In this document: positions 10,060-58,863 of the stretch, one piece after another | Layout: each line of letters opens with the position of its first letter | Numbering within the stretch: position 1 is the stretch's first letter | Source of the DNA: Deltaproteobacteria bacterium | Lineage (GTDB): Bacteria > Desulfobacterota > GWC2-55-46 | Reading direction: 5' to 3' | Length of the DNA: 64,000 nucleotides | Assembly: GCA_016212705.1 (NCBI GenBank) | Contig: JACREU010000081.1 | Coordinates: forward strand, 19,629-83,628 | Made by a program: the position numbers and the translations under genes | The notes under the pieces: generated by a model | What the model saw: only the letters and a program-made list of their open reading frames with translations | What the model was told of the DNA's origin: nothing | Databases searched by the model: none

Positions 10060-10088
10060 AGCATCGATAGCTTGTATAATCAGAGCCT

Positions 10089-11156: not shown

Positions 11157-11178
11157 GTACTGTCTGTCTGGCTAAGAC

Positions 11179-11267
11179 TACTCGGCGCAGGGCCAATGTT
11201 CCTCGGAGGGCCTTTTGGCTGACAAACCTTCTGACGATAGATACGGGCTTTGTCCGTGGGCTAGGAC
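11179..11267 (+). repeat. Copy of ~90-bp dispersed repeat family, overlapping the kamA stop codon
   Basis: tactcggcgcagggccaatg...gatacgggctttgtccgtgggctaggac. The last 7 nt (ctaggac) are the final Ser codon and the TAG stop of the minus-strand gene. Confidence 0.65.
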
Positions 11268-12433
11268 TCGGGCTCTATGTAGTTGAATATCCTGTTCTCG
11301 TAGTTTCTGAGGGTCACCCTCCCCTTTGCCTGTGAGAGCATGTATGTGGGGGCTATCGGGATCTTGCCGCCGCCGCCCGGGGCGTCTACCACGAAGGTCG
11401 GGACCGCGTAGCCCGTCGTATGGCCTCTGAGCTCTTCGATGATGTTTATGCCGACGGAAACCGGGGTCCTGAAGTGGCTCGTCCCCATAGCCATGTCGCA
11501 CTGGTAGACGTAGTAGGGGCGCACCCGGACTTTAAGGAGCTCGTGCATGAGTTTCTTCATGACCGTGGGCTTGTCGTTGACGCCCTTCAAGAGCACGGTC
11601 TGGCTCCCGAGCGGTATGCCTGCGTCGGCGAGCATGGTGCAGGACTTTACGACCTCCGGGGTTATTTCCCTCGGGTGCGAGAAGTGGATGGAGAGGTAGA
11701 GCGGGTGGTATTTTTTGAGCATGGAGACGAGTTCCTCGTTCACCCTCATGGGGAGCGTGACCGGGACCCTTGTCCCTATCCTTATAATCTCAAGGTGCGG
11801 GATGGAGCGGAGCTTGGAGATGTAGCTCTCCAGTACCTCTGTCTTCATCATGAGCGGGTCGCCGCCGGAGATGAGGACGTCGCGTATGGATTTCTTCGAT
11901 TTGATATATTTGTAGGCGTCCTCGAAACGGTCCGAGGGCATGGGCGGGTGTTCCTCGCCGACCATGCGTTTCCGGGTGCAATACCTGCAATACATGGCGC
12001 AGGAGTCGGTGACTATAAGGAGCGCCCTGTCCGGGTACCTGTGGACGAGGCCCGGGACCGGCGAGTGTGAGTCCTCTCCGCACGGGTCTATCATCTCGCA
12101 TGAGGAGACGCTGAACTCCTCGAGGCGCGGGATCGCCTGTTTCCTTATCGGGCACCTTGGGTCGTTCCTGTCGATGAGGGAGAAGAAGTACGGGGTGATG
12201 GCCATCGCAAGCCTGCCTGTGGCCCTCTTTATCCCTTCCTCTTCCCTCCTGGTAAGCGGGATGAGGTCCCGTATCACTTCAAGAGAGGTGATGCGGTTCT
12301 TAAGCTGCCATTTCCAGTCGTACCAGCACTCTGGCCGCGAGCCAGGCTCCTCAATATACTCGGCTAACTCTGTCTTGTACTTCCTCGCGGGATTACAACT
12401 GGGCGGCTCAGAGCTTATCGACAGCCCTTCCAT
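11261..12433 (-). CDS. kamA: Lysine 2,3-aminomutase family radical SAM enzyme (KamA/AblA-like)
   Basis: 390 aa with the CAMYCRYCTRK radical-SAM motif and KamA-type blocks (PYFFSLID, RYPDRALL, ISGGDPL, YVYQCD). AGGAGG RBS. Confidence 0.88.
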   Translation of the reverse strand: MEGLSISSEPPSCNPARKYKTELAEYIEEPGSRPECWYDWKWQLKNRITSLEVIRDLIPLTRREEEGIKRATGRLAMAITPYFFSLIDRNDPRCPIRKQAIPRLEEFSVSSCEMIDPCGEDSHSPVPGLVHRYPDRALLIVTDSCAMYCRYCTRKRMVGEEHPPMPSDRFEDAYKYIKSKKSIRDVLISGGDPLMMKTEVLESYISKLRSIPHLEIIRIGTRVPVTLPMRVNEELVSMLKKYHPLYLSIHFSHPREITPEVVKSCTMLADAGIPLGSQTVLLKGVNDKPTVMKKLMHELLKVRVRPYYVYQCDMAMGTSHFRTPVSVGINIIEELRGHTTGYAVPTFVVDAPGGGGKIPIAPTYMLSQAKGRVTLRNYENRIFNYIEPES

Positions 12434-12445
12434 TCGGATCTCCTC

Positions 12446-12721
12446 CTACCCCTGAGCGGGTTTTTCTGTTTTTGCGAAGCTCAGCTGCGGACTTGCGAGC
12501 TCTTCCATCGCTTTTTCAAAGGCTATCTTGTATTTGAACCCTTTTTTCAGGTACTTCCATATGTACTCGACCTTCTTCGCGTCCTCTTCGGAGTATTCCC
12601 TGAACTCCTTTTCACCGATGACAGTCTTCTGGGGCTTGATAAAGCCCTTCTGCTCAAGATAGTAGAGCTTTTGCCTTGGTATGTCTATCTTTGCCAATAG
12701 CTCTGGCGTCCTTATGCCCAC
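12446..12721 (-). CDS. MerR-family HTH transcriptional regulator (small)
   Basis: 91 aa, GTG start. The N-terminal HTH (ELLAKIDIPRQKLYYLEQKGFIKP) is followed by a helix typical of short MerR-like proteins. It lies 12 nt upstream of kamA on the same strand. Confidence 0.7.
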   Translation of the reverse strand: MGIRTPELLAKIDIPRQKLYYLEQKGFIKPQKTVIGEKEFREYSEEDAKKVEYIWKYLKKGFKYKIAFEKAMEELASPQLSFAKTEKPAQG

Positions 12722-12809
12722 CCTTATCTAAACTCCTCTTTATTAAAAGCCTGAGCTTGTATGAAAGCATTTTTAAGGTTATTCTTATTCTTATAACAAG
12801 TTTAAATTT

Positions 12810-12838
12810 ATTTTAGAGTTTAAATAAAAATTTGTCAA
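12810..12838 (-). promoter_or_regulatory. Sigma-70-type promoter for the merR-like/kamA operon
   Basis: The minus strand reads TTGACA (12838-12833), a 17-nt spacer, then TAAAAT (12815-12810). Flanked by direct AGTTTAAAT repeats. Confidence 0.55.
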
Positions 12839-13151
12839 GAGAAAAAATGTAGCAAAACCAAGGGGTGGTACTCTGGGTTATTGAGGAGGGGAAAAACCCG
12901 CTCGTTTTTTCCCCTCTATCCTAAAAAAGCACGAAAAGAGATATTTATCAGTGACTTTGATTCGAATTTCCCTTATAAACATATCGGTATATTGTTAAAG
13001 ACCTTAAAGATACCCAAGTAAAGCTCAGGAAGGGAGGAGGGCTGATAAGAGTTATCCAACAATAAAGGTAAGGGCAGGGCGATTGCTCAAAAACCTGCTT
13101 GAGCCTGTACCAAAAAACGGAGTGGTGGAAAAAACCTTTTAAAACAACAGC

Positions 13152-13179
13152 TTGACTTTCAGGCTGGATTTGCTAATCT
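13152..13179 (+). promoter_or_regulatory. Sigma-70-type promoter (extended -10)
   Basis: TTGACT (13152-13157), a 16-nt spacer ending TGC, then TAATCT (13174-13179), about 60 nt upstream of the ATG at 13242. Confidence 0.45.
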
Positions 13180-13241
13180 TTTTGGACAGGCTTTTTTCAG
13201 TAGATTTCACAAACTTAAAACTACCGAGGAGTTTAAATATA

Positions 13242-13919
13242 ATGTCCAGACTTTCTACTTCATGGCGTCAGGGATTTTTTGCGGATGTCGAGCCCATAAG
13301 GCTCATTGAGCCGCTCGCGTATGTGCTCGGCGCCCAGGACGAAGGCGAGCCCTTTGTCTTCAACTACACGGACGCGGTCCTTGTGGCAGGCCACTCCTGC
13401 CCGGCGGTCTCTGGGGCTTACAAACTGACAGCCAAGGCGCTAAAGGCCCTATACGGCAACGACCTGCCTGTCCGGGGCGAGATAAGGGTCCTTATAAAGG
13501 GCGGGCCAGGAGACCTCGCTTACGGGCCCCAGTCTCACGTCATCTCGCTAATAACGGGGGCCTCCGGCGCGACGGGTTTTAAGGGCCTCGGCGGCAACTA
13601 CGGCAGGAACAACAAGCTCTTCTTCGACGCGAAGGACGTCCAGTTCAACACCTTCATCTTCCAGAGAGAGGATAACGGAAAGGCCGTCCAGGTCGTCTAT
13701 AACCCGCAGGCGCTACCCGGCGACATGAGGATGAACGACCTCGTACCGCTTGTGCTCAAGGGCCGCGCGACAAAGGAGCAGAAGGAGCTCTTCTATTCTC
13801 TCTGGCAGGGGAATGTGAAGAGGATACTCCTTGAGGACGAAAAATACCCGGGGCTCTTTGAGGTAAAAGAGCTTAAAAATTTCTCGTTCCCAAAGGGGCT
13901 TGACGACTCGGCGTATTAG
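13242..13919 (+). CDS. Conserved hypothetical protein (weak FmdE-like GHxCP motif)
   Basis: The track ORF starts at TTG 13152, which coincides with the -35 hexamer. ATG 13242 has a GAGGAG RBS 10 nt upstream. The motif VAGHSCPAVSGAY loosely recalls FmdE-domain proteins. I make no firm assignment. Confidence 0.55.
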   Translation: MSRLSTSWRQGFFADVEPIRLIEPLAYVLGAQDEGEPFVFNYTDAVLVAGHSCPAVSGAYKLTAKALKALYGNDLPVRGEIRVLIKGGPGDLAYGPQSHVISLITGASGATGFKGLGGNYGRNNKLFFDAKDVQFNTFIFQREDNGKAVQVVYNPQALPGDMRMNDLVPLVLKGRATKEQKELFYSLWQGNVKRILLEDEKYPGLFEVKELKNFSFPKGLDDSAY

Positions 13920-13965
13920 CGCCTTGAAGCGGGCCCGTTAGTCCCGCAAGTCGAAAACTAAAAAA

Positions 13966-13996
13966 GGGCGGTGCCTTTCCGGCACCGCCCTTTTTT
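13966..13996 (+). terminator. Rho-independent terminator
   Basis: gggcggtgcc-tttcc-ggcaccgccc followed by tttttt. Confidence 0.85.
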
Positions 13997-14103
13997 ATCT
14001 TTCAGGTGCATTTTCCATAAAATTGTGTAAAATATCCCTGTTCTCTCATCACGCTGTCCTTTCATTTTTCTCATCCGCCAAAAAAAATCTCCAAGGAGGC
14101 TGA

Positions 14104-15093
14104 ATGGCTACCGGGACACCCCTTACGAAATTTCTTCTTGAAGAGCAGAGACGCTACCCCGAGTCGACCGGCAACTTCACTTCGCTTTTCTCCGACCTCG
14201 TCCTTGCCGCGAAGATCATATCGCGCGAGGTGAACAGGGCCGGGCTCATAGACATACTCGGCTCCACAGGCGCTCAAAACGTCCAGGGCGAGGAGGTCCA
14301 GAAACTCGACGAGCTCGCGAACGAGATGCTCATAAGGACGATGGAGCACGGCGGCCACCTCTCCGGCATGGCCTCGGAAGAGATGGAAGAGATTGTAAAG
14401 GTCGACGGTAAGTTCCCGAAAGGGAGCTACCTCCTGCTCTTCGACCCGCTCGACGGCTCCTCGAACATAGACGTGAACATAAGCGTAGGGACGATATTCT
14501 CGATACTCAAGCGCCCCGACGGATGCGATACCACAACAAAAGACTTCCTCCAGCCCGGGACCTCTCAGGTCTGCGCAGGGTACATACTCTACGGCTCCTC
14601 CACCATGCTCGTCTACACGACCGGCCACGGGGTCCACGGCTTCACGCTCGACCCCTCGGTAGGAGAGTTTCTCCTCTCTCATGAAAACATCAGGATACCG
14701 GAGAAGGGCAAGATATACAGCATAAACGAGGGGAACTCCAGGCACTGGTTCCCGGCCACATCCATGTACATTGAAAAGCTCAAGGCTAACGAAAAGGGTT
14801 ACAGCGCCAGATACGTCGGCTCGCTCGTCGCCGACTTCCACAGGAACCTTTTGAAGGGCGGCATATTCCTGTACCCCGCTGACAGGAAATCGAAAAACGG
14901 CAAGCTCCGGCTCCTGTATGAGGCGAACCCGCTATCCTTCATCGTAGAGCAGGCAGGGGGGAAGTCCTCGACCGGGGATAAAAGGGTGCTCGATATAGTC
15001 CCCGAGGAGCTCCACCAGAGGACGCCGCTCATCATCGGCTCAAAGGCAGACGTCGAGGAAGTGGAGAGCTTCTGGAAGTACCAGGAGGCCTAA
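14104..15093 (+). CDS. fbp: Fructose-1,6-bisphosphatase class 1
   Basis: 329 aa. The N-terminus ([22 protein letters not shown]) and metal-binding blocks ([33 protein letters not shown]) are typical of class I FBPase. Confidence 0.92.
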
Positions 15094-46487: not shown

Positions 46488-46579
<92 letters not shown>

Positions 46580-46737
46580 GTTTTACTTTCACCGAATTTG
46601 AAAGCGGTTGTCTCGGTGCTTCGTGCTGCGGCACGGTATTTCCCAGCAAGAATCCAAGCATTTTTGAGAAATTTTTGTCCGTCCTCGCTCCGCCTCCGCC
46701 GAATTTTGTATTTCGCTTTGCGAAATGCGCCGCCAAT

Positions 46738-46942
46738 ATGACAAGTGGAAAAACAATCAGCGAAAATATTAAGAAAAACCGGGCTAAACCTAGCCTGACT
46801 CAAGACGATTTAGCCAGAAAACTGATATTAAATATACAACGTTTACCAAAGTTGAAAGCGGTGTGTTAATAAGCCAAACGTTCAAACTATGGCGAAAATC
46901 GTCATAGCGTTAGGTGTTTCAATCGAAGAACTGATAAAATAA
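46738..46942 (+). pseudogene. XRE-family HTH regulator, disrupted by two frameshifts
   Basis: Three frames read in succession MTSGKTISENIKKNRAKPSLTQDDLARKL / YTTFTKVESGVLI / KPNVQTMAKIVIALGVSIEELIK*. Together they reconstruct a complete Cro/C1-type HTH protein. Confidence 0.6.
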
Positions 46943-46946
46943 CCCT

Positions 46947-47417
46947 ATGAATCTTCTTACAACAATCGTGGTTCTAGTAATTGGTGTTTTTCTTTGGTTG
47001 CTTATCTCGACAGTTTGGGCTTTTTTCAAGTATAAAAATAAAGAGAGAATGGACAAAAAGGAAATAGGCTCTTATCTTTCAGAGGGACTTACGCTAGCAA
47101 TAGCTATAGAAAAAGCATTTTCAAACTTAAACAAGTATCACAACCTCGGTCTGCAATCTTCTACAATTGAAAGGGTGAGCAACGGAATAGCAGAACTAGA
47201 AAAAATGATGGACGCCAGTAATACCGTAGAAATTTACTCGACTTTTGTGCATAGGTATATTTTTAGAGGTGGAAAAAATAAAAAACCGACAAATCTTTCT
47301 GACCAGAAAATAATTTATGCATTAGAAACCTTGAAGTTTGACTCACGAAACGGATATTTCGTAATTGGGCGAGATAGCGGTGAAGATTTTGATAAAAAAT
47401 ATCCTGATAAACAGTAA
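46947..47417 (+). CDS. Hypothetical single-pass membrane protein (AT-rich islet)
   Basis: 156 aa with an N-terminal TM (LLTTIVVLVIGVFLWLLISTVWAFF). AT-rich codon usage unlike the host genes. Confidence 0.5.
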   Translation: MNLLTTIVVLVIGVFLWLLISTVWAFFKYKNKERMDKKEIGSYLSEGLTLAIAIEKAFSNLNKYHNLGLQSSTIERVSNGIAELEKMMDASNTVEIYSTFVHRYIFRGGKNKKPTNLSDQKIIYALETLKFDSRNGYFVIGRDSGEDFDKKYPDKQ

Positions 47418-47426
47418 GGACAAAAT

Positions 47427-47924
47427 ATGTCAATGTTAATAACAATTCTTTTCATACTCTTTGCCATAATTAATGCTTTCTTGATTTTTAACATTCGTTC
47501 ACTGCGAAATTTATTAAAAAGATTATTTCTTGAAGAGGATAAAATAAAAAGTCGAGATTTAAAGATACTTTATAAATTAAGCAAAGACAATCCACTGGTT
47601 AGAGAATACATTACTTATAACGCACCGATTTTTATTTATCCTTTTGCCGCAAGGACAATGTCATCAATTGGAAGTTTAATACAGATTTTTTTGGTTCTGA
47701 TTTTCATATTTTCTATTTTTAAGTTTAATCTTATCTTTTTGACTTTGTCTGTTCTATTTTTCTTTCTTTCAGGATATACTGGATCAAGATTCAATAAAAA
47801 GGCAATGTTCAATGAGGCAGTTAAGAATTTTACCTCGAAAATACCGCCACACGATGGAAACTATTTTCATCAGATGTTATTTGATTTTCACGAAAGATAT
47901 TATCAGGAGTTAATAAAGCATTAG
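47427..47924 (+). CDS. Hypothetical polytopic membrane protein (AT-rich islet)
   Basis: 165 aa with three or four hydrophobic segments. It starts 9 nt after the previous ORF. Confidence 0.5.
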   Translation: MSMLITILFILFAIINAFLIFNIRSLRNLLKRLFLEEDKIKSRDLKILYKLSKDNPLVREYITYNAPIFIYPFAARTMSSIGSLIQIFLVLIFIFSIFKFNLIFLTLSVLFFFLSGYTGSRFNKKAMFNEAVKNFTSKIPPHDGNYFHQMLFDFHERYYQELIKH

Positions 47925-48018
47925 GAGTTGCCAAAGAAAAATCTGAAATCGTGGCGGTGCGCCAGTTTTACTGGCACGAAATTCGGTGGCGGCGGAAAAA
48001 AATGGAATCGGAAAGCGA

Positions 48019-48067
48019 GGGCGGGCAAAAATTCCTTCCCCCTAACCCCCTTCCTTTTTGCCCGCCC
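48019..48067. repeat. 13-bp perfect inverted repeat hairpin
   Basis: gggcgggcaaaaa (48019-48031) pairs with tttttgcccgccc (48055-48067). The loop ttccttccccctaacccccttcc is C-rich. Confidence 0.75.
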
Positions 48068-48245
48068 GAGCGATTGGATTCCAAAATTTGGAATTCGGAT
48101 TTTCGGCGAAAAATGTTCGAACTTCGTCCTAAAAGCCACCGCCAGTTAATGCCATAAGTGTAATAGAGATTCGAAACCGTCGAGGGCGGAGACGAAAGTC
48201 TTTTTAGTTTATAAAAACTCGTCTCTCGATTATAATGCGCGTGAG

Positions 48246-48680
48246 ATGCAAAAGCTCAATATCAGGATAAGGCTCCTTTCCCCAGGGGCCCGCGTGCCCT
48301 CGAAGTCCCACCACGGGGACGCGGGCTGGGACCTCTTTGCGTCAAGCGAGGTCACAGTCCTTCCGGGCGAGACCAGGGTCGTGCCCACGGGTGTTGCGAT
48401 GGAGATACCGGCGGGCTGGTACGGCCAGATAAAGGCCCGTAGCGGCCTCGGCTCAAAGGGCGTTGTCGTTACCGCCGGGGTCGTGGACAGCGGGTACAGG
48501 GGCGAGATAGGGGCAGTCGTCGTAAACACGAAGCGCGAGGGGGAGTTCGTTTTCAGGGCCGGAGACAAAGTCGCGCAGATGGTCTTCCTCCCTGTGCCGG
48601 AGGTCGAGTTCGAGTTGAGAGAGGAGCTGGATGCGACAGCGAGGGGCGCGGGCGGCTTCGGGTCGACGGGGCATAAGTAA
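48246..48680 (+). CDS. dut: dUTP diphosphatase
   Basis: 144 aa with GDAGWDL, ARSGLGSKG, GVVDSGYRGEI, AQMVF and RGAGGFGSTG motifs. Confidence 0.93.
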   Translation: MQKLNIRIRLLSPGARVPSKSHHGDAGWDLFASSEVTVLPGETRVVPTGVAMEIPAGWYGQIKARSGLGSKGVVVTAGVVDSGYRGEIGAVVVNTKREGEFVFRAGDKVAQMVFLPVPEVEFELREELDATARGAGGFGSTGHK

Positions 48681-48730
48681 CGGCGCAATAAAACCCTTGA
48701 CTGGGTACACTTAAATGTTAAAATCAATAG

Positions 48731-48756
48731 ACCCCCGCACTTTTCCGGGGGTTTTT
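48731..48756 (+). terminator. Hairpin plus T tract after dut
   Basis: acccccg-cacttttc-cgggggt followed by ttttt. A TTGACT-16-TAAAAT promoter-like element (48697-48724) lies just upstream of it. Confidence 0.5.
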
Positions 48757-48799
48757 AGTTATGCGTAAGGGGCTTCCTTTTCGTATAACCATCTTACAC

Positions 48800-48876
48800 G
48801 CGCCTGTGGCTCAGCTGGATAGAGCATCTGACTACGAATCAGAGGGTCGGGAGTTCGAATCTCTCCAGGCGCACCA
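48800..48876 (+). tRNA. tRNA-Arg (anticodon ACG)
   Basis: GCGCCTGTGGCTCAGCTGGATAGAGCA, anticodon stem TCTGA/TCAGA with loop CTACGAA (ACG), T-loop TTCGAAT, and CAGGCGC-A-CCA. Confidence 0.9.
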
Positions 48877-50252: not shown

Positions 50253-50666
50253 ATGAAGATGAGGATCGTCTATTCTGAAGTCATCGAGAGGATGAGGTGG
50301 GTAGGCAAGCACAAGAACAACTCCTCGGTTGCGCGGGTGCTGGGGGTAACGCCTCAGGCGCTTTCCAACTACAAGAAGAAAGACAAGATGCCGGTCTCCA
50401 TAGTGCTCAAATACTCCAAGCTCTACGGCCTTTCGCTCGACTGGCTCATAACCGGCAAGGGCGAGATATTCAACGCCAGGCCGATGGCGGCGGGAGAGGC
50501 GTATGAGGCGGCCCCCGGCTCGGTCAGGATGGACCTCAACTCCCTTTCCACCGATGAGATGGTCTACACTACCAAGCTCCTCCGGATATTCCGTGGTTCG
50601 GACACTCCGTTACTCAACTCGATGAAGTATCTGCTCAACTCCCTGTCTAAAAGAGAGGCCGAGTAA
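50253..50666 (+). CDS. Phage CI-repressor-like HTH protein
   Basis: 137 aa. NSSVARVLGVTPQALSNYKKKDKMPVSIVLKYSKLYGLSLDWLITGKGE is the CI-type N-terminal HTH pattern. Confidence 0.7.
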   Translation: MKMRIVYSEVIERMRWVGKHKNNSSVARVLGVTPQALSNYKKKDKMPVSIVLKYSKLYGLSLDWLITGKGEIFNARPMAAGEAYEAAPGSVRMDLNSLSTDEMVYTTKLLRIFRGSDTPLLNSMKYLLNSLSKREAE

Positions 50667-50770: not shown

Positions 50771-50811
50771 AAAAAAGCGGGTGCGGCCTTAAGGCCGCAC
50801 CCGCTTTTTTT
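50771..50811. terminator. Bidirectional rho-independent terminator
   Basis: aaaaaa-gcgggtgcggcc-ttaa-ggccgcacccgc-ttttttt, between convergent HTH genes. Confidence 0.85.
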
Positions 50812-50943: not shown

Positions 50944-51348
50944 TTAGGCGGCGCTTCTCCTTGAGGCTCCGCGTCCGTTTGAGGCGCGCGCCTTGACGCC
51001 CGGCTTCCTGCTGACTTTCGTCCCGGACCACTGAGCGCGGAGGAACGCGTTAAGGAGCGCCATTATGGCCGTCCTCCCTTTTGTTGAGAGGCGGTTATAG
51101 CCGTGCAAAAGGATGTTGCCGTCCTTTGCGCTCTCCATTGACACGTTCGAGAAGAACGCGCATACCGGGACATTCATGGATTCGGCTATCTTGATCCATT
51201 CCCCGGTCGATATCGGGGCAACGCCCTTCTCCTTCTTCGTGTACTCGCTCGTCCCGCATCCTAAGGCCTCGGCCAAGGCGTCTTTCGTGAACCCCTTTTT
51301 CCTCCGCATCGTGGAGAGTTTTTTGAGGACTTCCTCCTGCATGTTCAT
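50944..51348 (-). CDS. XRE-family HTH transcriptional regulator
   Basis: 134 aa with a strong AAGGAGG RBS. HTH segment RRKKGFTKDALAEALGCGTSEYTKKEKG, and a basic Ser/Arg-rich tail. Confidence 0.65.
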   Translation of the reverse strand: MNMQEEVLKKLSTMRRKKGFTKDALAEALGCGTSEYTKKEKGVAPISTGEWIKIAESMNVPVCAFFSNVSMESAKDGNILLHGYNRLSTKGRTAIMALLNAFLRAQWSGTKVSRKPGVKARASNGRGASRRSAA

Positions 51349-51501
51349 CGTCTTCCTCCTTGATTGGTTGATGTATGATCGGCCCGAGGCTGTTATCAGG
51401 CTCGGGAATAATCCGTAAGTCTTATTTATCCGGTTCTCGCGCGGTCCGCCGGAAATTATCCCGCAGACCGATTTTTTAGAACTCGCCGCCCCCCGGCCCC
51501 C

Positions 51502-52323
51502 CTACGCCACCTGTTCGGCGGGTCTTTTGTAGCTCCTGTCCCTGAGGAAGGACCTGCCGAAAGAGGAGTTGGCGGCCTCTTTGAGGTTCCAGTTCATTGG
51601 GAGCGCGCACATGTCTATCTTTTCGCAGTAGACCGGCTCTCCGGTAAAGAGGGAGCCGACCCTGGTAAAGAGCTTGAGCGTCTGCGGCATCTGGAAGTCC
51701 ATCGGCTTTTCCCCGTCGCACTCAACGTAGCCGTGATCGGTAAGCGGGAACCTGAAGCCCCTTACCTTCCCGATGCCGGGTCTCTTCGGCTGTACGGCGA
51801 CGCGCTTGTCGAGCATGCCGTTATGTCTTATGTGGTCGTATATGAGATACGCGTCCGAGAGCTTGTCGGTCTCCGGGTTGACGTTTGTGACGAGGTCGGT
51901 TATCCCCCGTCCGACCGCGAACTCTATGAGCGCCTTCCAGAGATAGAATATCGTCTTGGTGGATTTGAACCTCTCTTTCACGCATGACCTCGATATCTCG
52001 GCTATGCGCATGTTCGCCGACGTGTAGCCCTTTATGTCGAAGAGCTCCTCTATGGGGAGCCCGAAGTAAGAACGTTCTCTCAGCGCGTTTTCCTTATTAG
52101 GCATGATGAGCCTTACCGCGCCGGCGATCTCCCCGTTAAAAAGGGCAAGGAACTGGTGTGTCGTCTCCAGAGAGTCGTAGCCGTCGGACTCAAGCCCCGC
52201 GCCGTTCTCCATCTGGATGTATCCCGTCTCCTTTATGAAGACGTCGTACCTTACCTTGTAGCAGAGCTCTTTCTGTTCCGGTGTCTGCGCCCTTACGACC
52301 TGGATGCCCGTTTCCATCTCCAC
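51502..52323 (-). CDS. Autoinducer-synthase-fold GNAT, N-acyl amino-acid synthase / OlsB-like
   Basis: 273 aa with a GGAGGTG RBS. N-terminal AQTPEQKELCYKVRYDVFIKETGY, central IAEISRSCV, and C-terminal MPQTLKLFTRVGSLFTGEPVYCEKIDMCALPM all match the pattern of this GNAT subgroup. The assignment is by motif recall, not by search. Confidence 0.6.
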   Translation of the reverse strand: MEMETGIQVVRAQTPEQKELCYKVRYDVFIKETGYIQMENGAGLESDGYDSLETTHQFLALFNGEIAGAVRLIMPNKENALRERSYFGLPIEELFDIKGYTSANMRIAEISRSCVKERFKSTKTIFYLWKALIEFAVGRGITDLVTNVNPETDKLSDAYLIYDHIRHNGMLDKRVAVQPKRPGIGKVRGFRFPLTDHGYVECDGEKPMDFQMPQTLKLFTRVGSLFTGEPVYCEKIDMCALPMNWNLKEAANSSFGRSFLRDRSYKRPAEQVA

Positions 52324-52392
52324 CTCCGTTTAAGAGGAACGCCTTCCGAAACGGAGCGACAGGGAAAGGGTCGGAACATCCGTCTCAGCGGT

Positions 52393-54027
52393 TCAATTAT
52401 TTGCCCGCGCTCCGGCGTACTGGTCAAGCCTCGCGCTCTCGTTTATTTTTTCTATTATGGCGGACATGCTTTCGCGGTCGCCGACGATGAGGTAATGCCC
52501 GACCTTGTCCCTGAACTCCCGGTAGCCCATCCCGCAATGCCTGGAGACGAGGGCCGTGTCGTCCATGACCTGCGTAAGCAGGCCCTCGTCCTCGAGGCGT
52601 TTCGCGAAGGCTGTCGATCCCAGGGCTATCTCTGAAAAATGCCTGCCGTTTATCCTGTATTCGAGCGGCCTCCAGAGCGTCGGAGGCAGGCAGAGGGCGG
52701 GCGTGAAGAACATGAGGTCGTCGAAGTAGTCGGCGGAGAGCTCTATCCCGTACTTTTCCGGGAAGTCGCCCCACTCGCTCCTCGGTGAGACTATGGGGGC
52801 GCAGACGTAGACCGCGTCGGGCCGGGTCTCCTTTATGAATGCGAAGGTGTCGCAATCGGTCTCTTCCGTCCCGCCGGGCGGGGGGTAGACGAAGCTCGCC
52901 ACGGTGAAAAGGCCGCTCTCCCTGCACTCGCGTATAGTTTTTTTGGCGCGCTCGAGGTCGAGGCCCTTGTTTATGTAGCGGTCGAGATGTGCCTGGTTGC
53001 CGGACTCTATCCCGAAGAAGATGGAGAAACACCCGGAGCGCCTCAATGTATCGAAGGACCCCTGGTCGAGGTTGTTTATGTGGCTTATGAGGGCGTACTC
53101 GATGTCGAGCCCCTGAGAGATTATTTTTTCCGCGACGTCTTTTATAAGGAACCCCGGGGTGTTCGAGTCCCCGTTCCTGAATATGCGCGTCCCGTGGTTT
53201 TCGATGACGTGGCGGAATTCCTGAAGGATATGCTCCGAGGTCTTGCACCTCCAGCGCGCGCCGCTTTTCATCGAGTGCCCGCAGAAGTGGCACTTAAAAG
53301 GGCATCCCCGGCTGAACTCGGAGATGAACATCTTGAGCTTCTTATTCCCCGAGAGCGCCGGGTAGGTCTCTGCGTCGTAGACGGGGAAGGAGAGGCTCAA
53401 GTCCTCGAGCCTTCTTTCGCGTGTAGTTATTATCTCCGAGCCGTCCCTGAAGATGAGGTTCGGGACCGCGCCGTACCCTTTTTTGGCGGCTACGCTCTCC
53501 GCGAGCGCAACAATAGTCTCCTCGCCCTCGCCGTAGGCGAGGGCGTCGAAGACGCCCGTCACCTTGTAAATCCTCTCCCTGAAGTAATCGACATGAGGGC
53601 CGCCGCCGAATATGGGGATGTGGGGCAGGCGCTTTTTTATCCCGTCAGCGAGCTTTATGCAGTTTTCAAAGCCCTTGCCGGTCCAGAGCTTCATGCCGAT
53701 GAAGTCGGCCTTTTCCCGCACGGCGGCCGCGCTTATCTCAGAGGCCTTTCTCTCGATATCCTCGTCCTGTATCCTGTCTATCGCAACCCTTATCCTCTCG
53801 AGCTCGCCGGAGTGCGCCTCGTTGCCCTGCCTTAGCGAATAGAGCCGCTCCCCGAGTTCGCGGGGCAGGAGCTCCATCACATCAAGGGTGTTGTAGTCGA
53901 GTATCCTGGTCACGTGCCCCTGGGATTTAAGCGACCCCGCGAGGACGGCGAGGCCGTTGTCCGGAAAAAAGGCGTGCGGTGAAGTCGGGTAGCCCGAGTA
54001 GTTTATGAGGAGGCTTCTGCTCTTCAT
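52393..54027 (-). CDS. Cobalamin-binding-domain (class B) radical SAM enzyme
   Basis: 544 aa. The N-terminal Rossmann-like B12-binding region (...FIGMKLWTGKG...IPIFGGGPH...) is followed by the radical SAM core with SRGCPFKCHFCGH (CxxxCxxC). Confidence 0.82.
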   Translation of the reverse strand: MKSRSLLINYSGYPTSPHAFFPDNGLAVLAGSLKSQGHVTRILDYNTLDVMELLPRELGERLYSLRQGNEAHSGELERIRVAIDRIQDEDIERKASEISAAAVREKADFIGMKLWTGKGFENCIKLADGIKKRLPHIPIFGGGPHVDYFRERIYKVTGVFDALAYGEGEETIVALAESVAAKKGYGAVPNLIFRDGSEIITTRERRLEDLSLSFPVYDAETYPALSGNKKLKMFISEFSRGCPFKCHFCGHSMKSGARWRCKTSEHILQEFRHVIENHGTRIFRNGDSNTPGFLIKDVAEKIISQGLDIEYALISHINNLDQGSFDTLRRSGCFSIFFGIESGNQAHLDRYINKGLDLERAKKTIRECRESGLFTVASFVYPPPGGTEETDCDTFAFIKETRPDAVYVCAPIVSPRSEWGDFPEKYGIELSADYFDDLMFFTPALCLPPTLWRPLEYRINGRHFSEIALGSTAFAKRLEDEGLLTQVMDDTALVSRHCGMGYREFRDKVGHYLIVGDRESMSAIIEKINESARLDQYAGARANN

Positions 54028-54155
54028 GAGGCCCGTCGCGGCATTGGACTTGAATCGCGTCCACGCGCTGGGCCCCCCTTAAGTTTAACGGGAGGCCTTT
54101 TAAGTTTAGGGGCAGCCTTTAGTTTGGCTTGACCGGGTCGAGTGTCTTTAAGGGG

Positions 54156-54188
54156 ATTATAATCGGGGCAAGGTGACAGATAGGTGAC
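54156..54188 (-). promoter_or_regulatory. Activator-type promoter of the rSAM/GNAT operon: two GTCACCT heptamers at 11-bp spacing plus a perfect TATAAT
   Basis: The minus strand reads GTCACCT(54188-54182)-atct-GTCACCT(54177-54171)-tgccccgat-TATAAT(54161-54156). There is no -35 hexamer. Confidence 0.5.
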
Positions 54189-54230
54189 GGATTAGGGGGT
54201 GTGAGGCAAGAGGCTTAAAAAAACGGGGTG

Positions 54231-57200
54231 TTATCTTACGGCGGAAAGGGAGAGGTAGATGTTTTTCGTCCTGGGAGAGGGCGCTATGCCGAGGACCTCT
54301 TCGAGCCCCCTCTCAAGGCGCTTGTACAAGACGAGGGCCTCGCCGCTCCTCCCATGTTTTTCGAGTAAGACCATGAGCTTTTGGTAGAGTTCCTCGGAGA
54401 GGGACTCTACCGCTATCCCCCTACGGTAGCATTCGATCGCCTTCCCGGCGTCTCCGGCCTTTTCCCAATGGGAGCCGAGGCTTGCGACCGCGCTTATGTA
54501 CCTTTCCCTGACGCCATCGTAAAAGAGTACGACCCAGGGGTTCTCGTCCGGCTCTATCTGGAAGCCCCCGCCGTAGAGCTCTATGGCATCCTCAAGCGCC
54601 TTTACGGGGGAATCGGTCTTTCCGTGGAAAGGCTTCGCGTCGTCGACCGCCTGGTTGAACTTCCAGACGTCGACCCAGGCGTAGCGCGCATTCAGCGCGA
54701 GCCTGCCATCTTTGAGGAGCACCGCGTCCTCGATCCCGATGAGGGACCGGAGGCGCTTGAGCGTTGTAGTGAAGGCCACATGCGCCGCGTCCCCTTCGGA
54801 ATCGTGCCAGAGCGCGTCGGATATCCTGCTCTCGGGGACGTTCCTGCCGCCGAAGGAGATGAGGAGTTTGAGCATCTCGATGAGTTTTTTCGGGGTCTTT
54901 CTGCCGAACTGCGTCTGAACGCCGTCCTTATACACAGCGAACCTGCCGAGGGTATAAATTTTAAGGCGCCAGGGCCACTCGTCAAGCCCTAAAGGCGGGG
55001 TCTCCGGGAAGAGGTACCTCTCCCTTATGAGCCTCTTCGCGTAATCGGGTTCAATCCCCTCCTCTATGGCCAGCGCGCAGAGTTCCGCCATTATGTCGGT
55101 CCGCCACATGTGAAAGTTGACGAAGCCCTGCCTGGACCCGAGCGAGAAGGCCTCCTTGAGCTTATCGGCCGCGGCGCGGCGTTTGCCGCTTTCGAGCGCG
55201 AACCAGGCCTCGAAGACCGAGGCGACGAAGACGACGAGCTTGCTACCCGTGCGCATTGCGAGCGCGCGGGCGCGCGCGGCCTCCTCGAAGCCCTTGAGCC
55301 TTTCGCCGAGCTCGAAGCGCACAAGCGCGAGCCCTGTCCTGGACATCGCCTCGGCAAAGGGCGAGCCCATCTCCATCGCGAGGCCCAAAGAGAGCTTTTC
55401 GTGCTCGAGCGCGCCGGGGAGGTCTTTCGTAAGGAGCCTGTGGCAGGCCTCTATGTGGTGGTAATATGACGCGCAGAACCTTCTCCTCTCGTCCATGGCC
55501 GAGGCGGCTTTTTTGAGGAATCTCTCGGCCCCGCTCAAGTCCCCGGATGTGAGCGAGCAGACCGCGCCGTGTCCGTAAAGGAAGTAGTCGAAGATATTCA
55601 TGCCCTTGGCCTCGGAGGTACGGAGCCCCTCTCTTACCGTGGCCACGCACGCGTCGAGCTTGCCCCGGTACAGGGAGTTAAGCGCCTCCGAGAGCTTTAT
55701 GGCGACCTGCGCGAAAGGGGAGTGGTCCCGGCGCTTCGCCATGCTTGAGAGCCGCTCGACTATCATATTGGCCTTTTCGAGGTCTCCGGTCCAGACGAAG
55801 TAATCAACGAGGCACAGACCCGTCTGCGCATAAGCGTCGGGGTCGGGGATTTCGTCAAGGAGCGAGAGGGTCTTCTCCGCCCAGAGGCCCATATCCGGGT
55901 GGGCCGGGGCCCTGAACGAGAGCGCGAGAAACATGAAGAGCGTTGAGCGGACCTCGACCTCCTTTGATGGGAACGTCCCGTATTCCTTGAGCAACCCGTC
56001 GAATACGGCTATCCAGCGGTCCAGGGGCTTCAGGTTGTCAAAGCGGTGTATAAGCGCTTCTACCGCCCCGGACCAGCTCATGAAGACGCCCTGCTGGTCT
56101 CCGGAGGCGCGCGCGGCCTCGAAGGCCTTCTCGAAGAATAAAACGGACTTTTCCTGGTCGAAGTGAAAATAGCACCGCCCCTTCCAGAACCACAGGGAAG
56201 GGTTCCCGGCCATCTCCTCTTCCCCCATGCCCTCCAGCCAGTCCTTGAGCGTTAGGTATCTGCCTTGCCGCAGGAGCGAGGGCGCCTCCCGACAGATAAG
56301 TTCGCCGAGCGAGACCTTGTCATCGGCGCGGAGGAAGAGCGTGGCGGCCTCTTCCGGGTATCCGTTCTCCGCGAGTATCCCGGCGGCCCTCTTCTCTATT
56401 GCCGCAAGTGATGGAGGGGCCGTCTCCCGCTTAAGCCTGGATGATAGGAACTCCCTGAAGAGGTTGTGGTACTGATAGCTCTCCTCCTCGCCCGAGTGGC
56501 TCTGGATGAAGTAGTTCTTTTCCACAAGCTCTGAGAGCATCGCCCCGGAGCGTTTGTTCCCGGTAAGCGCCTCCGCCATCCCCGGGGTCATCACCGGGAA
56601 TAGAGACGTCTTAAGCAAAAACCCCCTGAAGTCGGCCGGGAGCTTCTGGAAGAAGCCGGACGCGAAGTAGTCGAATACCTCCGTTGGGTTGTGTCTGTCT
56701 ATCCGCTCAGTGCCGAAGTCTTCGGTTTCGCTGCCGAGGAGGAGGACGAGGCCGGCGAGCCACCCGTCTGTGGAGGACAGGAGGTTACGGACCTGCTCGT
56801 CGGTCAAGTGCCTGCCGCGCTTCCTGTAGGCTATGCCGCGGACCTCGTCAGGCGTCAAGCGGAGTTCCTCCCAGGAGACCGTCTCCATGGAGCTGGCGAG
56901 CCGCATCCTCGAGAAGACAGGCGGAGGGGCGCCCCTGCTTATTATAAGGACGTTCGATTTCCTGGGGAGCGCGTCCAGGCCTTCGTGGATTATCTCGTGT
57001 AGGGCGGACTCAAAGGTAGCCTCCTGGAAGTTGTCGAATACGATAAGGGCCTTGGGGCCCAGGCGCGAGTAGAGTTCTGAAAAGTACTCGCGCGAGAAGG
57101 CCTTGAGGCCTAACGCGTATTCCGGGGTGAAGTGGGGTAGCGGCTTTTTTTTTCTGGGATTGGCCTTAAGGGCGGCAAGCCCCATGTAATGGAAGAAGGA

Positions 57201-57428
57201 GCCGGGGTCGCTGTCGCCGCGGTCTACCTGGTACCAGACGCAGGAGAGCTTCCTGGCCTCTATGTAGCTCGCCACAAGGGTCGTCTTGCCCGAGCCCGGC
57301 GGGGCGTGGACCCAGATGAGGGGTTTTTCCCTGCACTTATCGAGGATGCTGAAAAATTTGTCGCGGAAAAATATGTTCTGCGGGGCGGGCCTTGTTATCT
57401 TGGCGAGTGATTCAGGGAGGTTTTTCAT
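54231..57428 (-). CDS. Large STAND-type regulator: MalT-like ATPase N-terminus, TPR-like helical middle, C-terminal SARP module (OmpR-type wHTH + BTAD)
   Basis: 1065 aa. P-loop VHAPPGSGKTTLV followed by VWYQVDRGDSDP (MalT-like). The C-terminus has LKIYTLGRFAVYKDG...TLKRLRSLIG (wHTH), then WVDVWKF...ELYGGGF...EELYQKLMVLLEKHGRSGEALVLYKRLE (BTAD). Confidence 0.75.
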   Translation of the reverse strand: MKNLPESLAKITRPAPQNIFFRDKFFSILDKCREKPLIWVHAPPGSGKTTLVASYIEARKLSCVWYQVDRGDSDPGSFFHYMGLAALKANPRKKKPLPHFTPEYALGLKAFSREYFSELYSRLGPKALIVFDNFQEATFESALHEIIHEGLDALPRKSNVLIISRGAPPPVFSRMRLASSMETVSWEELRLTPDEVRGIAYRKRGRHLTDEQVRNLLSSTDGWLAGLVLLLGSETEDFGTERIDRHNPTEVFDYFASGFFQKLPADFRGFLLKTSLFPVMTPGMAEALTGNKRSGAMLSELVEKNYFIQSHSGEEESYQYHNLFREFLSSRLKRETAPPSLAAIEKRAAGILAENGYPEEAATLFLRADDKVSLGELICREAPSLLRQGRYLTLKDWLEGMGEEEMAGNPSLWFWKGRCYFHFDQEKSVLFFEKAFEAARASGDQQGVFMSWSGAVEALIHRFDNLKPLDRWIAVFDGLLKEYGTFPSKEVEVRSTLFMFLALSFRAPAHPDMGLWAEKTLSLLDEIPDPDAYAQTGLCLVDYFVWTGDLEKANMIVERLSSMAKRRDHSPFAQVAIKLSEALNSLYRGKLDACVATVREGLRTSEAKGMNIFDYFLYGHGAVCSLTSGDLSGAERFLKKAASAMDERRRFCASYYHHIEACHRLLTKDLPGALEHEKLSLGLAMEMGSPFAEAMSRTGLALVRFELGERLKGFEEAARARALAMRTGSKLVVFVASVFEAWFALESGKRRAAADKLKEAFSLGSRQGFVNFHMWRTDIMAELCALAIEEGIEPDYAKRLIRERYLFPETPPLGLDEWPWRLKIYTLGRFAVYKDGVQTQFGRKTPKKLIEMLKLLISFGGRNVPESRISDALWHDSEGDAAHVAFTTTLKRLRSLIGIEDAVLLKDGRLALNARYAWVDVWKFNQAVDDAKPFHGKTDSPVKALEDAIELYGGGFQIEPDENPWVVLFYDGVRERYISAVASLGSHWEKAGDAGKAIECYRRGIAVESLSEELYQKLMVLLEKHGRSGEALVLYKRLERGLEEVLGIAPSPRTKNIYLSLSAVR

Positions 57429-57686
57429 CGATAGATTCGGCCCCGCGAGATTAAGATGTGGTGCGATTAGGCGAGTCCCCGGAGCGGTTCCTGATCCATA
57501 ATGTTTCGGTGTCTTTAATTTTCCAGAAATCGGGGCGATTAGTCAACAAATGTTTTGCGGGACGCCGATTTTTTTTGAATTCTGACGGTTATCATTCCAG
57601 CAGGCGTTTCAGCCCGTCCTGCCCCGGCCTAATCATACATTAACGATTCCCATGTAATATTGGCCCTGAAAGGGGTGAATGCCATT

Positions 57687-58121
57687 ATGAAATTGATTTT
57701 TAAGGTTATTCCCGCACTCCTCGTCAGCTATCTCCTCTCCGCGTCTTTCGCCCATGCGTCAAGCCATATTATCATTTTTACGGGCGAAAGGCTCTCTGCC
57801 ACGGAAGGTAGAAGGCTCAATTGCGGGGGCAAACTGCGGGCGCTTGTAAAGGATGTCTCCGGAAAAGGGGAACACACCCTTGAGGCGAGGTGGATAGGGC
57901 CCGAAGGCAAGGTGAGGCAGTATTCGAGGCAGAAGGTAGTAGTCGGGGCCGGGCCTGTCGACGCGCTGGTGTGGCTTGAGTTTGATCAGGCGCCTTGCGC
58001 TGAAGAGCCGGCGGGCTTTAGCGACGCCGGGGCAATAAAGAGGTTCGGTCACTGGAAGGTGGAGGTGTCCCTCGACAGCCGCCTTGTGGAGAGCGCCGAG
58101 TTTGTTGGTTCATGTTGTTAA
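57687..58121 (+). CDS. Small secreted hypothetical protein
   Basis: ATG 57687 gives MKLIFKVIPALLVSYLLSASFAHA, a signal peptide. The C-terminus ends GSCC. Confidence 0.5.
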   Translation: MKLIFKVIPALLVSYLLSASFAHASSHIIIFTGERLSATEGRRLNCGGKLRALVKDVSGKGEHTLEARWIGPEGKVRQYSRQKVVVGAGPVDALVWLEFDQAPCAEEPAGFSDAGAIKRFGHWKVEVSLDSRLVESAEFVGSCC

Positions 58122-58140: not shown

Positions 58141-58863
58141 CTATCCGATATCGTCCTCGGCGGCGATCCGCGCGCCCGCCTTTGCGGCATGGAGCCAGCC
58201 TTCGTCCCTGCCGCTGAAGGGCGTCCTTTTGCAGACGATCAGGTGGTCGTGGACAAGGAGGTCTATGGCGAGCGCGGCCCTCTCGAGCGTTCTCGCGAGC
58301 TGTCTTTCGGAGGGGATATCCGCAGAGAGTGCGCCGGGCACGGCGCGGATGAAGACTACCGCGCGCGCGTTGTGCCTTATCGCGAGCTCCACGGCCTTTC
58401 TCGAAACCGCCACAGGGCTTTCGATGTTGCCGTCATGGATAAGCTCCGTTGAGAGGACTTCGTTCCTTGCGTTCAGGTATATGGCAAGGAGCCTCTCGCC
58501 CTTCAAGCCCTTGAGCGAAGCCCTCAGGAGCCTGATGGCGTCTTTTTTTTCGTTGACGGTCTCAAGCTTTGGGCCGGCCCCGGCTATGTAGCCCTCCCGC
58601 ATCTTTTTTATGGCGGATATGAGGGAGGCGGCCTTTTGCGGGACGCCTTTTGTCGACTTGAGTTCGTCTTCGTTTGCCGCAAGGACGGAGTTTAAGTCCC
58701 TGAACCTCTCGAGGAGCGCCTTTGAGGCGGTCTTAAGCCCCTTTTCCGGCACCGAATACGAAAGAAGGAGCTCGAGCGCCTCAGAGGGTGTGAACCCTTC
58801 GATGCCCGAGGCCTTGAACCTCTCCCGGAGCCACTTTTTGGCCTTTAATGTGCCGTTCTTCAC
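58141..58863 (-). CDS. RadC-like (UPF0758) protein with a degenerate JAB/MPN metal site
   Basis: 240 aa. An N-terminal HhH region (LLERFRDLNSVLAANEDELKSTKGVPQKAAS) is followed by a RadC core in which the expected HNHPSG...PSxxD is replaced by IRAVPGA...PSERQ (58300-58353). Confidence 0.72.
   Translation of the reverse strand: MKNGTLKAKKWLRERFKASGIEGFTPSEALELLLSYSVPEKGLKTASKALLERFRDLNSVLAANEDELKSTKGVPQKAASLISAIKKMREGYIAGAGPKLETVNEKKDAIRLLRASLKGLKGERLLAIYLNARNEVLSTELIHDGNIESPVAVSRKAVELAIRHNARAVVFIRAVPGALSADIPSERQLARTLERAALAIDLLVHDHLIVCKRTPFSGRDEGWLHAAKAGARIAAEDDIG

Follow-up and report, generated by a model that had tools for sequence, protein, structure and literature searches.

What is made by a gene pair that couples a cobalamin-type radical S-adenosylmethionine (SAM) enzyme with an N-acyltransferase of the LuxI/FeeM fold, and is this pair governed by the large regulator encoded just upstream? 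The question is raised by a stretch of 64,000 nucleotides (hereafter the window) of contig JACREU010000081.1 from a Deltaproteobacteria bacterium (assembly GCA_016212705.1). On its minus strand follow one another the genes of a STAND-type transcriptional activator (54231–57428; 1065 aa), of a class-B radical SAM enzyme (rSAM; 52393–54027; 544 aa), which is the first gene of the operon in this lineage, of a LuxI/FeeM-fold N-acyltransferase (GNAT; 51502–52323; 273 aa, with a family-specific C-terminal half) and of an XRE-type helix–turn–helix (HTH) protein (50944–51348; 134 aa; Pfam HTH_3), the last gene of the putative operon. A CI-like HTH protein (50253–50666; 137 aa; Pfam Phage_CI_repr) is encoded on the plus strand, convergent to the operon. 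An initial annotation, made from the sequence alone, had described these five open reading frames (ORFs) and predicted a modified acyl-amino-acid product, with dedicated regulators around the two enzyme genes. A check of the ORF list confirmed all five at these coordinates, and Pfam and NCBIfam profile searches upheld their domain assignments. The comparison with related loci leaves us in little doubt that the rSAM and the GNAT form a conserved functional module.

In 15 of the 15 close relatives with enough flanking DNA (L001–L009, L023–L025, L028, L030 and L031; GNAT identity 54–96%; the loci numbered L028–L039 came from a metagenome scan with alignment A1), the GNAT gene is immediately preceded by the rSAM gene, which has the same orientation and ends 29–76 nt before it. 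The order regulator, rSAM, GNAT holds across all of these loci. The nearest public relative is ‘Deltaproteobacteria bacterium GWB2_55_19’ (L001), with 94–96% protein identity across the whole cassette. Moreover, independent match lists for the GNAT and for the rSAM have at least 17 contigs of equal size in common. Beyond this circle, the pair is found in two Woesearchaeota metagenome-assembled genomes (MAGs; L010 and L014) and in one Methanosarcinales MAG (L011), where the rSAM is 38–39% and the GNAT 32–36% identical to the window enzymes. There is an overlap between the two genes of 11 nt in L011 and of 4 nt in L014, and a gap of 16 nt in L010. In the distant metagenomic locus L027, the gene of a 31%-identical GNAT has an 8-nt overlap with the end of an rSAM-like gene, and an enoyl-CoA hydratase gene comes next. 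The gene-neighbourhood comparison therefore shows the rSAM kept beside the GNAT in the close relatives, in the three archaeal loci and in L027, and by curated scores the GNAT belongs to no characterized clade, so that the pairing proposed in the initial annotation stands.

The close relatives all belong to a single broad lineage of deltaproteobacteria-like MAGs, and such an adjacency could in principle be inherited synteny between enzymes of unrelated pathways. However, the genes outside the module vary (BrkB/AsmA in L023, a FadL-like gene in L025, a PilZ gene and a sigma-54 activator in the window) and the accessory genes shift position, while the core persists; this argues that the module is under selection. 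The recurrence of the pair in archaea at 32–39% identity, with overlapping genes in L011 and L014, points the same way, and we disfavour simple synteny as extremely improbable. A few features of individual loci should be mentioned here. The GNAT of L009 is split into two ORFs of 86 and 140 aa (7961–8763), possibly a pseudogene or an assembly error. In both L011 (10708–13791) and L014 (11219–12862), the opposite strand encodes, after the pair, a KaiC-like ATPase as well as a conserved protein that is about 100 aa long and has no Pfam match. The L011 region further contains genes for a V4R protein and a winged-HTH (wHTH) protein and, at a distance of 2.4 kb from the pair, for a full-length RadC.

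The rSAM had been proposed to be a B12-binding-domain radical SAM enzyme, and this is borne out by Pfam, in which the B12-binding (59 bits) and Radical_SAM (52 bits) families both score above their cutoffs, and by the presence of the CPFKCHFC motif. The three cysteines of the CxxxCxxC signature (Cys242, Cys246 and Cys249) are invariant in 35 homologues. The AlphaFold2 (AF2) model of the protein has a pLDDT of 92.6, and a Foldseek search with it returned TsrM as the top match (4e-22), followed by MgmA, AprD4, OxsB, CysS and TokK. From this model we are confident that the enzyme adopts the class-B (cobalamin-binding-domain) radical SAM fold. It shares with TokK/ThnK, CysS, TsrM and MgmA the N-terminal Rossmann cobalamin domain, the radical SAM barrel and the CxxxCxxC motif, all with high-confidence structural matches, but is only 13–18% identical to them and differs by a long helical insertion (aa 56–104) and a distinct C-terminal domain. 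It belongs to no named subfamily: its best NCBIfam scores are all well short of the respective cutoffs (ApyD, 111 versus 750; PhpK, 106 versus 600; BchE, 102 versus 481; HpnJ, 84 versus 578), and it likewise misses the curated cutoffs of the HpnR and ladderane-type class-B models.

Some indication of the substrate comes from more distant rSAMs. The rSAMs of the cassette, of the archaeal loci and of a second tier of relatives have 34 invariant columns in common (28–43% identity). Three second-tier loci that were fetched (37–42% identity) have no GNAT partner. In these, the rSAM neighbours are a ketoacyl synthase, one to three more B12-rSAMs and a PEMT/ICMT-type methyltransferase, together with HisKA_7TM–GAF histidine kinases and response regulators, and a FadL-like porin in one of them. 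Second-tier loci in this identity range occur in Elusimicrobia (L016–L018), in a ‘Lokiarchaeia’ MAG (L019) and in L020–L022. Judged by gene content, these clusters look like an uncharacterized modified-fatty-acid pathway, possibly leading to a methyl ester, with its own sensor. This context points to an acyl chain as the substrate. CysS and TokK, which appear among the structural matches, are class-B enzymes acting on pantetheine substrates.

The second enzyme had been described as a GNAT of the autoinducer-synthase fold, a view to which both the profile and the structural searches lend support. Its Pfam scores are 55.4 bits for FeeM (PF21926, gathering threshold 27 bits; model positions 2–128 of 158), 53 bits for Acetyltransf_5 and 29 bits for Autoind_synth, the last being barely above the threshold of 24 bits. 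The start codon is probably the ATG at 52317; the resulting protein has 271 aa, as does the identical database cluster P0001. Residues 1–150 are modelled with confidence by AF2; with this model, Foldseek found BjaI as the best match (E = 7e-7), then FeeM (PDB entry 2g0b), TofI, LasI, MesI and RpaI. A profile of the wider family matches BjaI at E = 1.6e-12, with the E-x-S-R motif aligned to E-W-S-R of BjaI. The protein has Arg25, Phe29, Asp47, Asp50, Arg71, Glu109, Ser111 and Arg112, with Tyr35 in place of Trp34, when set against the LuxI/LasI motif residues (Arg24, Phe28, Trp34, Asp45, Asp48, Arg70, Glu101, Ser103 and Arg104); the same motifs occur in OlsB/FeeM-type enzymes. Among 48 diverse family members, Arg25, Asp47, Asp50, Arg71, Glu109 and Arg112 are invariant or nearly so. 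The same is true of an ETD motif peculiar to the family and of some stretches in the C-terminal half, about 120 residues of which are specific to the family.

The family is rare: 37 matches were found in an index of 5.8 billion proteins, and an exhaustive profile search over 1.84 billion representatives gave 33 clusters at E ≤ 1e-30 and 178 at E ≤ 1e-10. It is also distinct from the curated ones. The N-terminal 120–145 residues align to the OlsB and TIGR03694 models, but the GNAT scores below every NCBIfam cutoff, whether for exosort_acyl (TIGR03694, 51.8 versus 111.95), for OlsB (39 versus 350 and 29 versus 320), for TraI (26 versus 292) or for acyl-homoserine lactone (AHL) synthase (19 versus 250). 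The 48 members of the wider family also fall below the curated cutoffs, the best match to TIGR03694 being at E = 1.5e-19. The earlier view that the pair serves neither ornithine-lipid synthesis nor a PEP-CTERM locus agrees with these scores and with the gene content: none of the annotated loci has an Acyltransferase/PlsC-type gene within or adjoining the module, no PEP-CTERM or exosortase match was found among the module neighbours, and Pfam annotation finds no OlsA-type acyltransferase, acyl carrier protein, exosortase or transporter gene within about 8 kb of the cassette in the window, as had been stated. Likeness to OlsB/OlsA and to the TIGR03694 enzymes is thus limited to the N-terminal alignment; the scores are low and the module has no OlsA, exosortase or PEP-CTERM gene. 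A separate GNAT subfamily (30–34% identity; L012, L013 and L033–L037) lacks the rSAM. In L012, a Spirochaetia MAG and the sole annotated locus of this subfamily, to which the others are similar, the GNAT belongs to an operon (8002–14636) that also encodes a response regulator of the HTH type, a pair of histidine kinases and a FeeM–V4R fusion of 702 aa.

We may then ask what controls the pair. The regulator is a STAND protein in which a MalT-type NOD (aa 10–411; PDB entry 8bob, E = 7e-24) and tetratricopeptide repeats (TPR) are followed by a C-terminal SARP-like module, with aa 819–1056 aligned to residues 42–277 of AfsR (PDB entry 8hvr). NCBIfam gives MalT at 186 bits over aa 10–414 and AfsR over aa 826–1055, and Pfam gives BTAD at 63.3 bits (cutoff 22.1; aa 919–1058) together with NPHP3_N and TPR_MalT; the NTPase domain is of the NACHT/AAA_16 type. 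An OmpR-type wHTH is weakly matched (Trans_reg_C, 15.8 bits, E = 0.015, aa 847–898); the corresponding family, PF00486, is present in some paralogous regulators, and WHD_MalT is recorded in the orthologues. The NTPase, the TPR and the BTAD of the STAND/SARP regulator that had been proposed are therefore confirmed, but not the classical SARP domain order, as the SARP module sits at the C-terminus. As in AfsR and MalT, an NTPase switch and a TPR sensor are combined with a DNA-binding effector; in contrast to AfsR, the domain order is inverted, with the SARP module where MalT carries its LuxR-type HTH, and the hosts are not actinomycetes. Orthologues of 1060–1071 aa (47–94% identity) are encoded immediately upstream in all 15 close relatives, and the MalT–SARP hybrid family has at least 831 homologues. 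Paralogous regulators of about 40% identity, in a Geobacteraceae locus (L040) and in a Nitrospirota locus (L041, 1379–6942), lie beside an 80-aa ORF together with PEP-CTERM or collagen-like proteins. The genes concerned in L040 are at 10336–12733, and the N-terminus of the 80-aa ORF is conserved (YI.R.YR....NP..LVG.VE).

Right after the stop codon of the regulator, and without a −35 element, the minus strand reads TCCGTCACCTA-TCTGTCACCTT-GCCCCGAT-TATAAT (54191–54156). The first two segments are 11-bp direct repeats with a TCTGTCA core, which form a putative SARP operator (54170–54191) in place of the −35 element, and the TATAAT hexamer at 54156–54161 is a −10 element 8 nt downstream of the second repeat unit. 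SARPs bind direct repeats that overlap the −35 element and end 8 nt upstream of the −10 element (PMC11301090). The geometry of the window box, namely an 11-bp period, 8 nt to the −10 element and replacement of the −35 element, agrees with this rule. Nowhere else in the 64-kb window does the exact box occur, and 0 occurrences are expected. A relaxed pattern gave exactly one match in each of 11 loci (462 kb, both strands), compared with about one in total in the shuffled sequences, a count that speaks for specificity and positional constancy and, on the side of caution, not for independent discovery, because the pattern was derived post hoc from these same sites. All 11 matches are in the gap after the regulator stop codon, at the same position and on the same strand, and the spacing from the heptamer to a hexamer starting with TA is 12 nt in each of them. 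The hexamer itself varies (TATAAT, TATTTG, TAAACA and others), and the heptamers are TCTGTCA-like or, in one subclade, TCGGTTA/AAAGTTA with identical spacing. A box of this architecture is found in every lineage and precedes whichever gene follows the regulator, be it the rSAM gene or that of a second type of XRE protein (type B, see below). The same type of box also occurs in L040 (10248–10290), where TCCGTAAGATA-TCTGTAAG... is followed after 12 nt by TATATC, downstream of the stop codon of the 40%-identical paralogous regulator. The claim of dedicated regulators thus finds support in a SARP-type operator/promoter between the regulator and the rSAM that is conserved in 11 loci. Since the box is conserved after its stop codon and matches the SARP geometry, the regulator very probably activates the rSAM–GNAT(–XRE) operon.

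A candidate for the downstream end of the putative transcription unit can be named as well. A hairpin at 50771–50811 with a 12-bp stem, a TTAA loop, an A-run and a T-run, read directly from the sequence, resembles an intrinsic terminator on both strands and would be shared by the operon and the CI-like gene, in keeping with the bidirectional terminator that had been placed between the two convergent HTH genes. A pattern scan gave no terminator-like site on the minus strand between 54027 and 50944; its counts equalled the shuffled expectation and it missed the hairpin at 50771–50811. The approximately 120-nt leader of the rSAM gene contains three AAACT(T)AA(A)GG direct repeats (54071–54125, minus strand), which are found in the window and in L001 and are not a conserved part of the module, as they are absent from L002. 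Small G+C-rich hairpins in the leader have the same distribution, being common to the window and L001 and not found in L002. There is no obvious Shine–Dalgarno sequence before the rSAM ATG in the window, and an Rfam scan of the window found three tRNAs only, with no riboswitch or known RNA family in the rSAM leader.

Small HTH genes accompany the module in most lineages. Such a gene is present inside or beside the operon in L002, L004, L006–L009, L023, L025, L030 and L031; in L005, unlike the other lineages examined, no small XRE-type HTH gene was detected. An XRE gene of a first type (type A) is located behind the GNAT in the window, L002, L008 and L025, and type B lies between the regulator and the rSAM in L004, L006, L007, L009, L023 and L031 (in L006, a run of N falls inside this gene at about 8100). 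The XRE protein ends in a C-terminal motif, LL.GY.RLS..G+..I..LL.AFL, which may be an interaction module. ORFs of 61–73 aa that consist of this motif without an HTH are found right after the GNAT in L006 (10835–11020), L007 (9107–9328) and L031 (6756–6941); their motif is LL.G(Y/F)KRLSKKEKEILLTILDAFLLGK, as in the window XRE protein, and a similar motif ends the type-B XRE and CI-like proteins. Homologues of the CI-like protein (34–95% identity) are found at either end of the module in L001–L004, L008, L009 and L023–L025.

A RadC-like HhH and JAB protein is encoded on the minus strand upstream of the regulator (58141–58863; Pfam RadC, 66 bits), and also in L001 and L002. In L004, L009 and L023–L025 this gene comes directly after the GNAT, on the same strand with gaps of 50–83 nt, and in several loci it appears to be co-operonic with the GNAT; it is absent from L005–L008. 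The RadC-like gene is a recurrent and non-obligatory neighbour. Its versions in the window and in L004 (7486–8346), L023 (9258–9989) and L025 (10888–11586) are about 32–34% identical between lineages.

CI-like, XRE HTH and RadC-like JAB genes are typical of prophages and islands, and STAND NTPases are common among defence systems, so that the locus could be imagined as a mobile-element or anti-phage module in which a CI/Cro-like switch, RadC and a STAND sensor govern the two enzymes as effectors. Against this, PADLOC gave no match for the regulator, the GNAT, the RadC-like protein or the CI-like protein and only weak generic matches for the rSAM and the XRE protein, and no relative was found in 2.9 million viral contigs. 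The module lies in the dnaA–dnaN housekeeping region, with no integrase or structural genes among those examined, and the effector domain of the STAND protein is of a DNA-binding type, not a nuclease or protease. We consider a mobile or defensive role very improbable.

The short ORFs behind the GNAT raise a different question, namely whether the pair modifies a ribosomal peptide or protein. The product would then be a selidamide-like lipopeptide from the class of ribosomally made peptides with post-translational modifications (RiPPs), or an acylated form of one of the small proteins (HTH or motif-only), and the rSAM would serve as a peptide C-methyltransferase. GNAT-type maturases that attach fatty acids to RiPPs are indeed known (PMC8784127), ORFs of suitable size follow the GNAT in the three loci named above, and the best NCBIfam matches of the rSAM include ApyD at the top (111 bits) and rSAM_ocin_1 (81 bits). 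All of these scores are, however, far under the cutoffs, the module lacks a leader peptidase, a transporter and a RiPP recognition element, and the archaeal and L027 pairs have no such small ORF. A search for a precursor by clustering ORFs of 25–110 aa across 10 loci returned as conserved only shadow ORFs in large genes and XRE-related ORFs, and the candidate was rejected; neither the 203-bp gap at 54028–54230 nor the equivalent gaps of eight other loci contain a conserved precursor ORF. Peptide or protein modification is in our view improbable, if somewhat less so than a mobile or defensive role.

We thus return to a small-molecule pathway. Our preferred reading, to which we give an even chance as a whole, is that the locus is a regulator-activated operon of a two-enzyme pathway for a tailored N-acyl amide, the product being most likely a diffusible signal. 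Taken separately, an N-acyl amide with radical-SAM tailoring is the somewhat more probable part, and a signalling role the more tentative one. The STAND protein would be made from its own promoter and, by analogy with MalT and AfsR, become active once ligand and ATP are bound. Its SARP module would then bind the repeats at 54170–54191 that replace the −35 element, a site whose existence and conservation are observed directly, and recruit RNA polymerase. A single rSAM–GNAT–XRE transcript ending at the hairpin at 50771–50811 is suggested by the short gaps, the lack of an internal terminator and the overlap of the rSAM and GNAT genes in archaeal loci. The rSAM may tailor an acyl thioester, be it fatty or short, and methylation of an unactivated carbon is the likeliest reaction; modification of the acyl chain is preferred because a fatty-acyl thioester is common to the GNAT-paired and second-tier contexts. 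The GNAT would transfer the acyl group onto an amine, either of an amino acid or of SAM as in AHL synthases, presumably in this order. The product could, speculatively, act as a diffusible signal. Its sensor may be the same STAND protein, through the TPR region (autoinduction), or another one, and the XRE- and CI-type HTH proteins might add feedback.

Why favour a signal? Relatives of both enzymes elsewhere repeatedly adjoin sensor and regulator genes, in three independent contexts: the STAND–SARP and HTH proteins in bacteria; a PAS–HTH (wHTH) regulator, a V4R protein, KaiC-like ATPases and a dCache kinase beside the archaeal pairs; and two-component systems beside the distant GNAT and the second-tier rSAMs. 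Archaeal membranes consist of ether lipids and are not built from fatty-acyl lipids. As the module has no second acyltransferase or exporter and the pair also occurs in archaea, we tentatively favour a diffusible signal over a bulk lipid.

The main alternative retains the same pathway with a product that does not signal, be it an aminolipid induced by stress, a biosurfactant or an N-acyl amino acid with antimicrobial activity; the regulator would then respond to some unrelated cue. The highest GNAT scores are those with the FeeM, OlsB-type and exosortase-type models, and N-acyl amino acid synthases that work with tailoring enzymes, TyzABC for example, are known to make lipids and antibiotics; paralogous regulators control cargo other than synthases, so that the sensor need not recognize the product. 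On the other hand, the conserved module has no OlsA-type second acyltransferase, flippase or exporter, the pair is also found in archaea, including DPANN-type genomes, and its relatives are repeatedly found among sensor kinases and V4R ligand-binding proteins. We regard this alternative as rather unlikely, although clearly less so than the others considered here.

Several points nevertheless weigh against the signal-producing pathway that we prefer. The product and its role are themselves inferred, all of the sequences derive from uncultured organisms, and regulatory genes adjoin many kinds of genes. The chemistry of the rSAM need not be methylation: other reactions are also carried out by class-B enzymes (AprD4, OxsB and BchE), and AprD4, which is among the structural matches, is not a methylase. 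The C-terminal half of the GNAT is modelled at lower confidence (pLDDT 50–77), and its N-terminal motifs recur in LuxI, OlsB and FeeM-type enzymes alike; as they do not point to one acyl acceptor, an assignment on this basis was dropped. An exclusive association of the regulator with the cassette was likewise rejected, as a 49%-identical homologue lacks the cassette and the approximately 40%-identical paralogues carry non-synthase cargo (the 80-aa protein and PEP-CTERM proteins). It is therefore not required that regulators of this family sense what their neighbours produce, which weakens the case for autoinduction.

As for the wider surroundings, the window is an ordinary piece of chromosome around dnaA and dnaN, with yidC, mnmE, clpB, serS, glnE and further housekeeping genes. 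The cassette has as its neighbours, in a range of about 8 kb, a chlorite-dismutase-like gene, tRNAs, the RadC-like gene, the PilZ gene and the sigma-54 PAS activator. A 153-aa ORF between the RadC-like gene and the regulator (57660–58121, plus strand) has no family match and is probably not a gene; a 53-aa fragment of it is kept in L028. The stretch at 46488–48873 is low in GC (41.5% versus about 57% elsewhere) and may be a small island; it is bounded by tRNA genes (46488–46576 and 48800–48873) and carries two adjacent ORFs (46947–47417 and 47427–47924) with hydrophobic N-termini and without a convincing family match. Finally, a 1130-aa protein in which an MFS transporter is fused to a PlsC-type acyltransferase and to an AMP-binding enzyme (3808–7200), resembling Aas/LplT lysophospholipid recycling, lies 47 kb from the cassette and is probably unrelated to it.

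How does the module compare with known systems? LuxI/FeeM-fold enzymes are classic makers of acyl signals and of bioactive N-acyl amino acids. With LuxI/LuxR systems, and in particular with the CoA-dependent BjaI, the locus shares the synthase fold, with the R...F, D-x-x-D, R-L and E-x-S-R motifs kept, and a synthase gene that adjoins a ligand-type activator appearing to drive it. It differs in that no LuxR-type receptor gene is present in the module, the adjacent regulator being instead a 1065-aa MalT-NOD/TPR/SARP protein, in having a class-B rSAM as an obligatory partner, and in the GNAT itself (Tyr35 versus Trp34, a family-specific C-terminal half and a curated AHL-synthase score of 26 versus 292). 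With FeeM-type synthases (the fee cluster and TyzABC) it would share the logic by which a FeeM/BjaI-fold acyltransferase makes an N-acyl amino acid that clustered enzymes elaborate. TyzABC is the acyl-oxazolone pathway of Mycobacterium tuberculosis (PMC10404671). Tailoring is carried out there by a nitroreductase-family oxidase and a ThiF-like cyclase, whereas here it would fall to a cobalamin-type rSAM that may act before acyl transfer, and the pair is spread over anaerobic bacteria and archaea. With the OlsB and TIGR03694 enzymes, the only further link is indirect: the paralogues of the regulator that lie beside PEP-CTERM genes, in L040 with the same operator type, make a distant functional tie to PEP-CTERM biology possible.

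In the literature we found neither a class-B radical SAM enzyme nor a STAND–SARP regulator described as the partner of a LuxI/FeeM-fold enzyme, and no account of this MalT–SARP hybrid regulator with its box. The most far-reaching interpretation, which we put forward as unlikely on present evidence, is that the pair is the synthase of a new class of diffusible acyl-amide autoinducer whose acyl chain is modified by cobalamin-dependent radical chemistry, and which serves anaerobic bacteria as well as archaea and is read in bacteria by an NLR-like STAND–SARP receptor in place of a LuxR protein. If true, it would represent a new quorum-sensing architecture and a candidate source of the unexplained archaeal ‘AHL-like’ activities, through the Methanosarcinales and Woesearchaeota MAGs. 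In archaea, only one quorum-sensing gene (filI) has been experimentally tied to a pathway, and AHL-like activities are reported without known synthases (PMC12240190); a signalling product would provide a concrete candidate synthase. Even with a lipid as the product, a new function would be gained for a class-B rSAM family that is also present in the unexplored ketoacyl synthase/rSAM/methyltransferase clusters. The operator box, for its part, offers a directly testable handle on the large uncharacterized MalT–SARP hybrid family. The interest of the pair thus lies in its span over bacteria and archaea, in a regulator–operator link that can be tested and in the fact that candidates for archaeal signal synthases are almost unknown. 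If the product is a signal, the module would bring both a new chemistry and a new receptor class to cell–cell communication in anaerobic sediment and groundwater bacteria.

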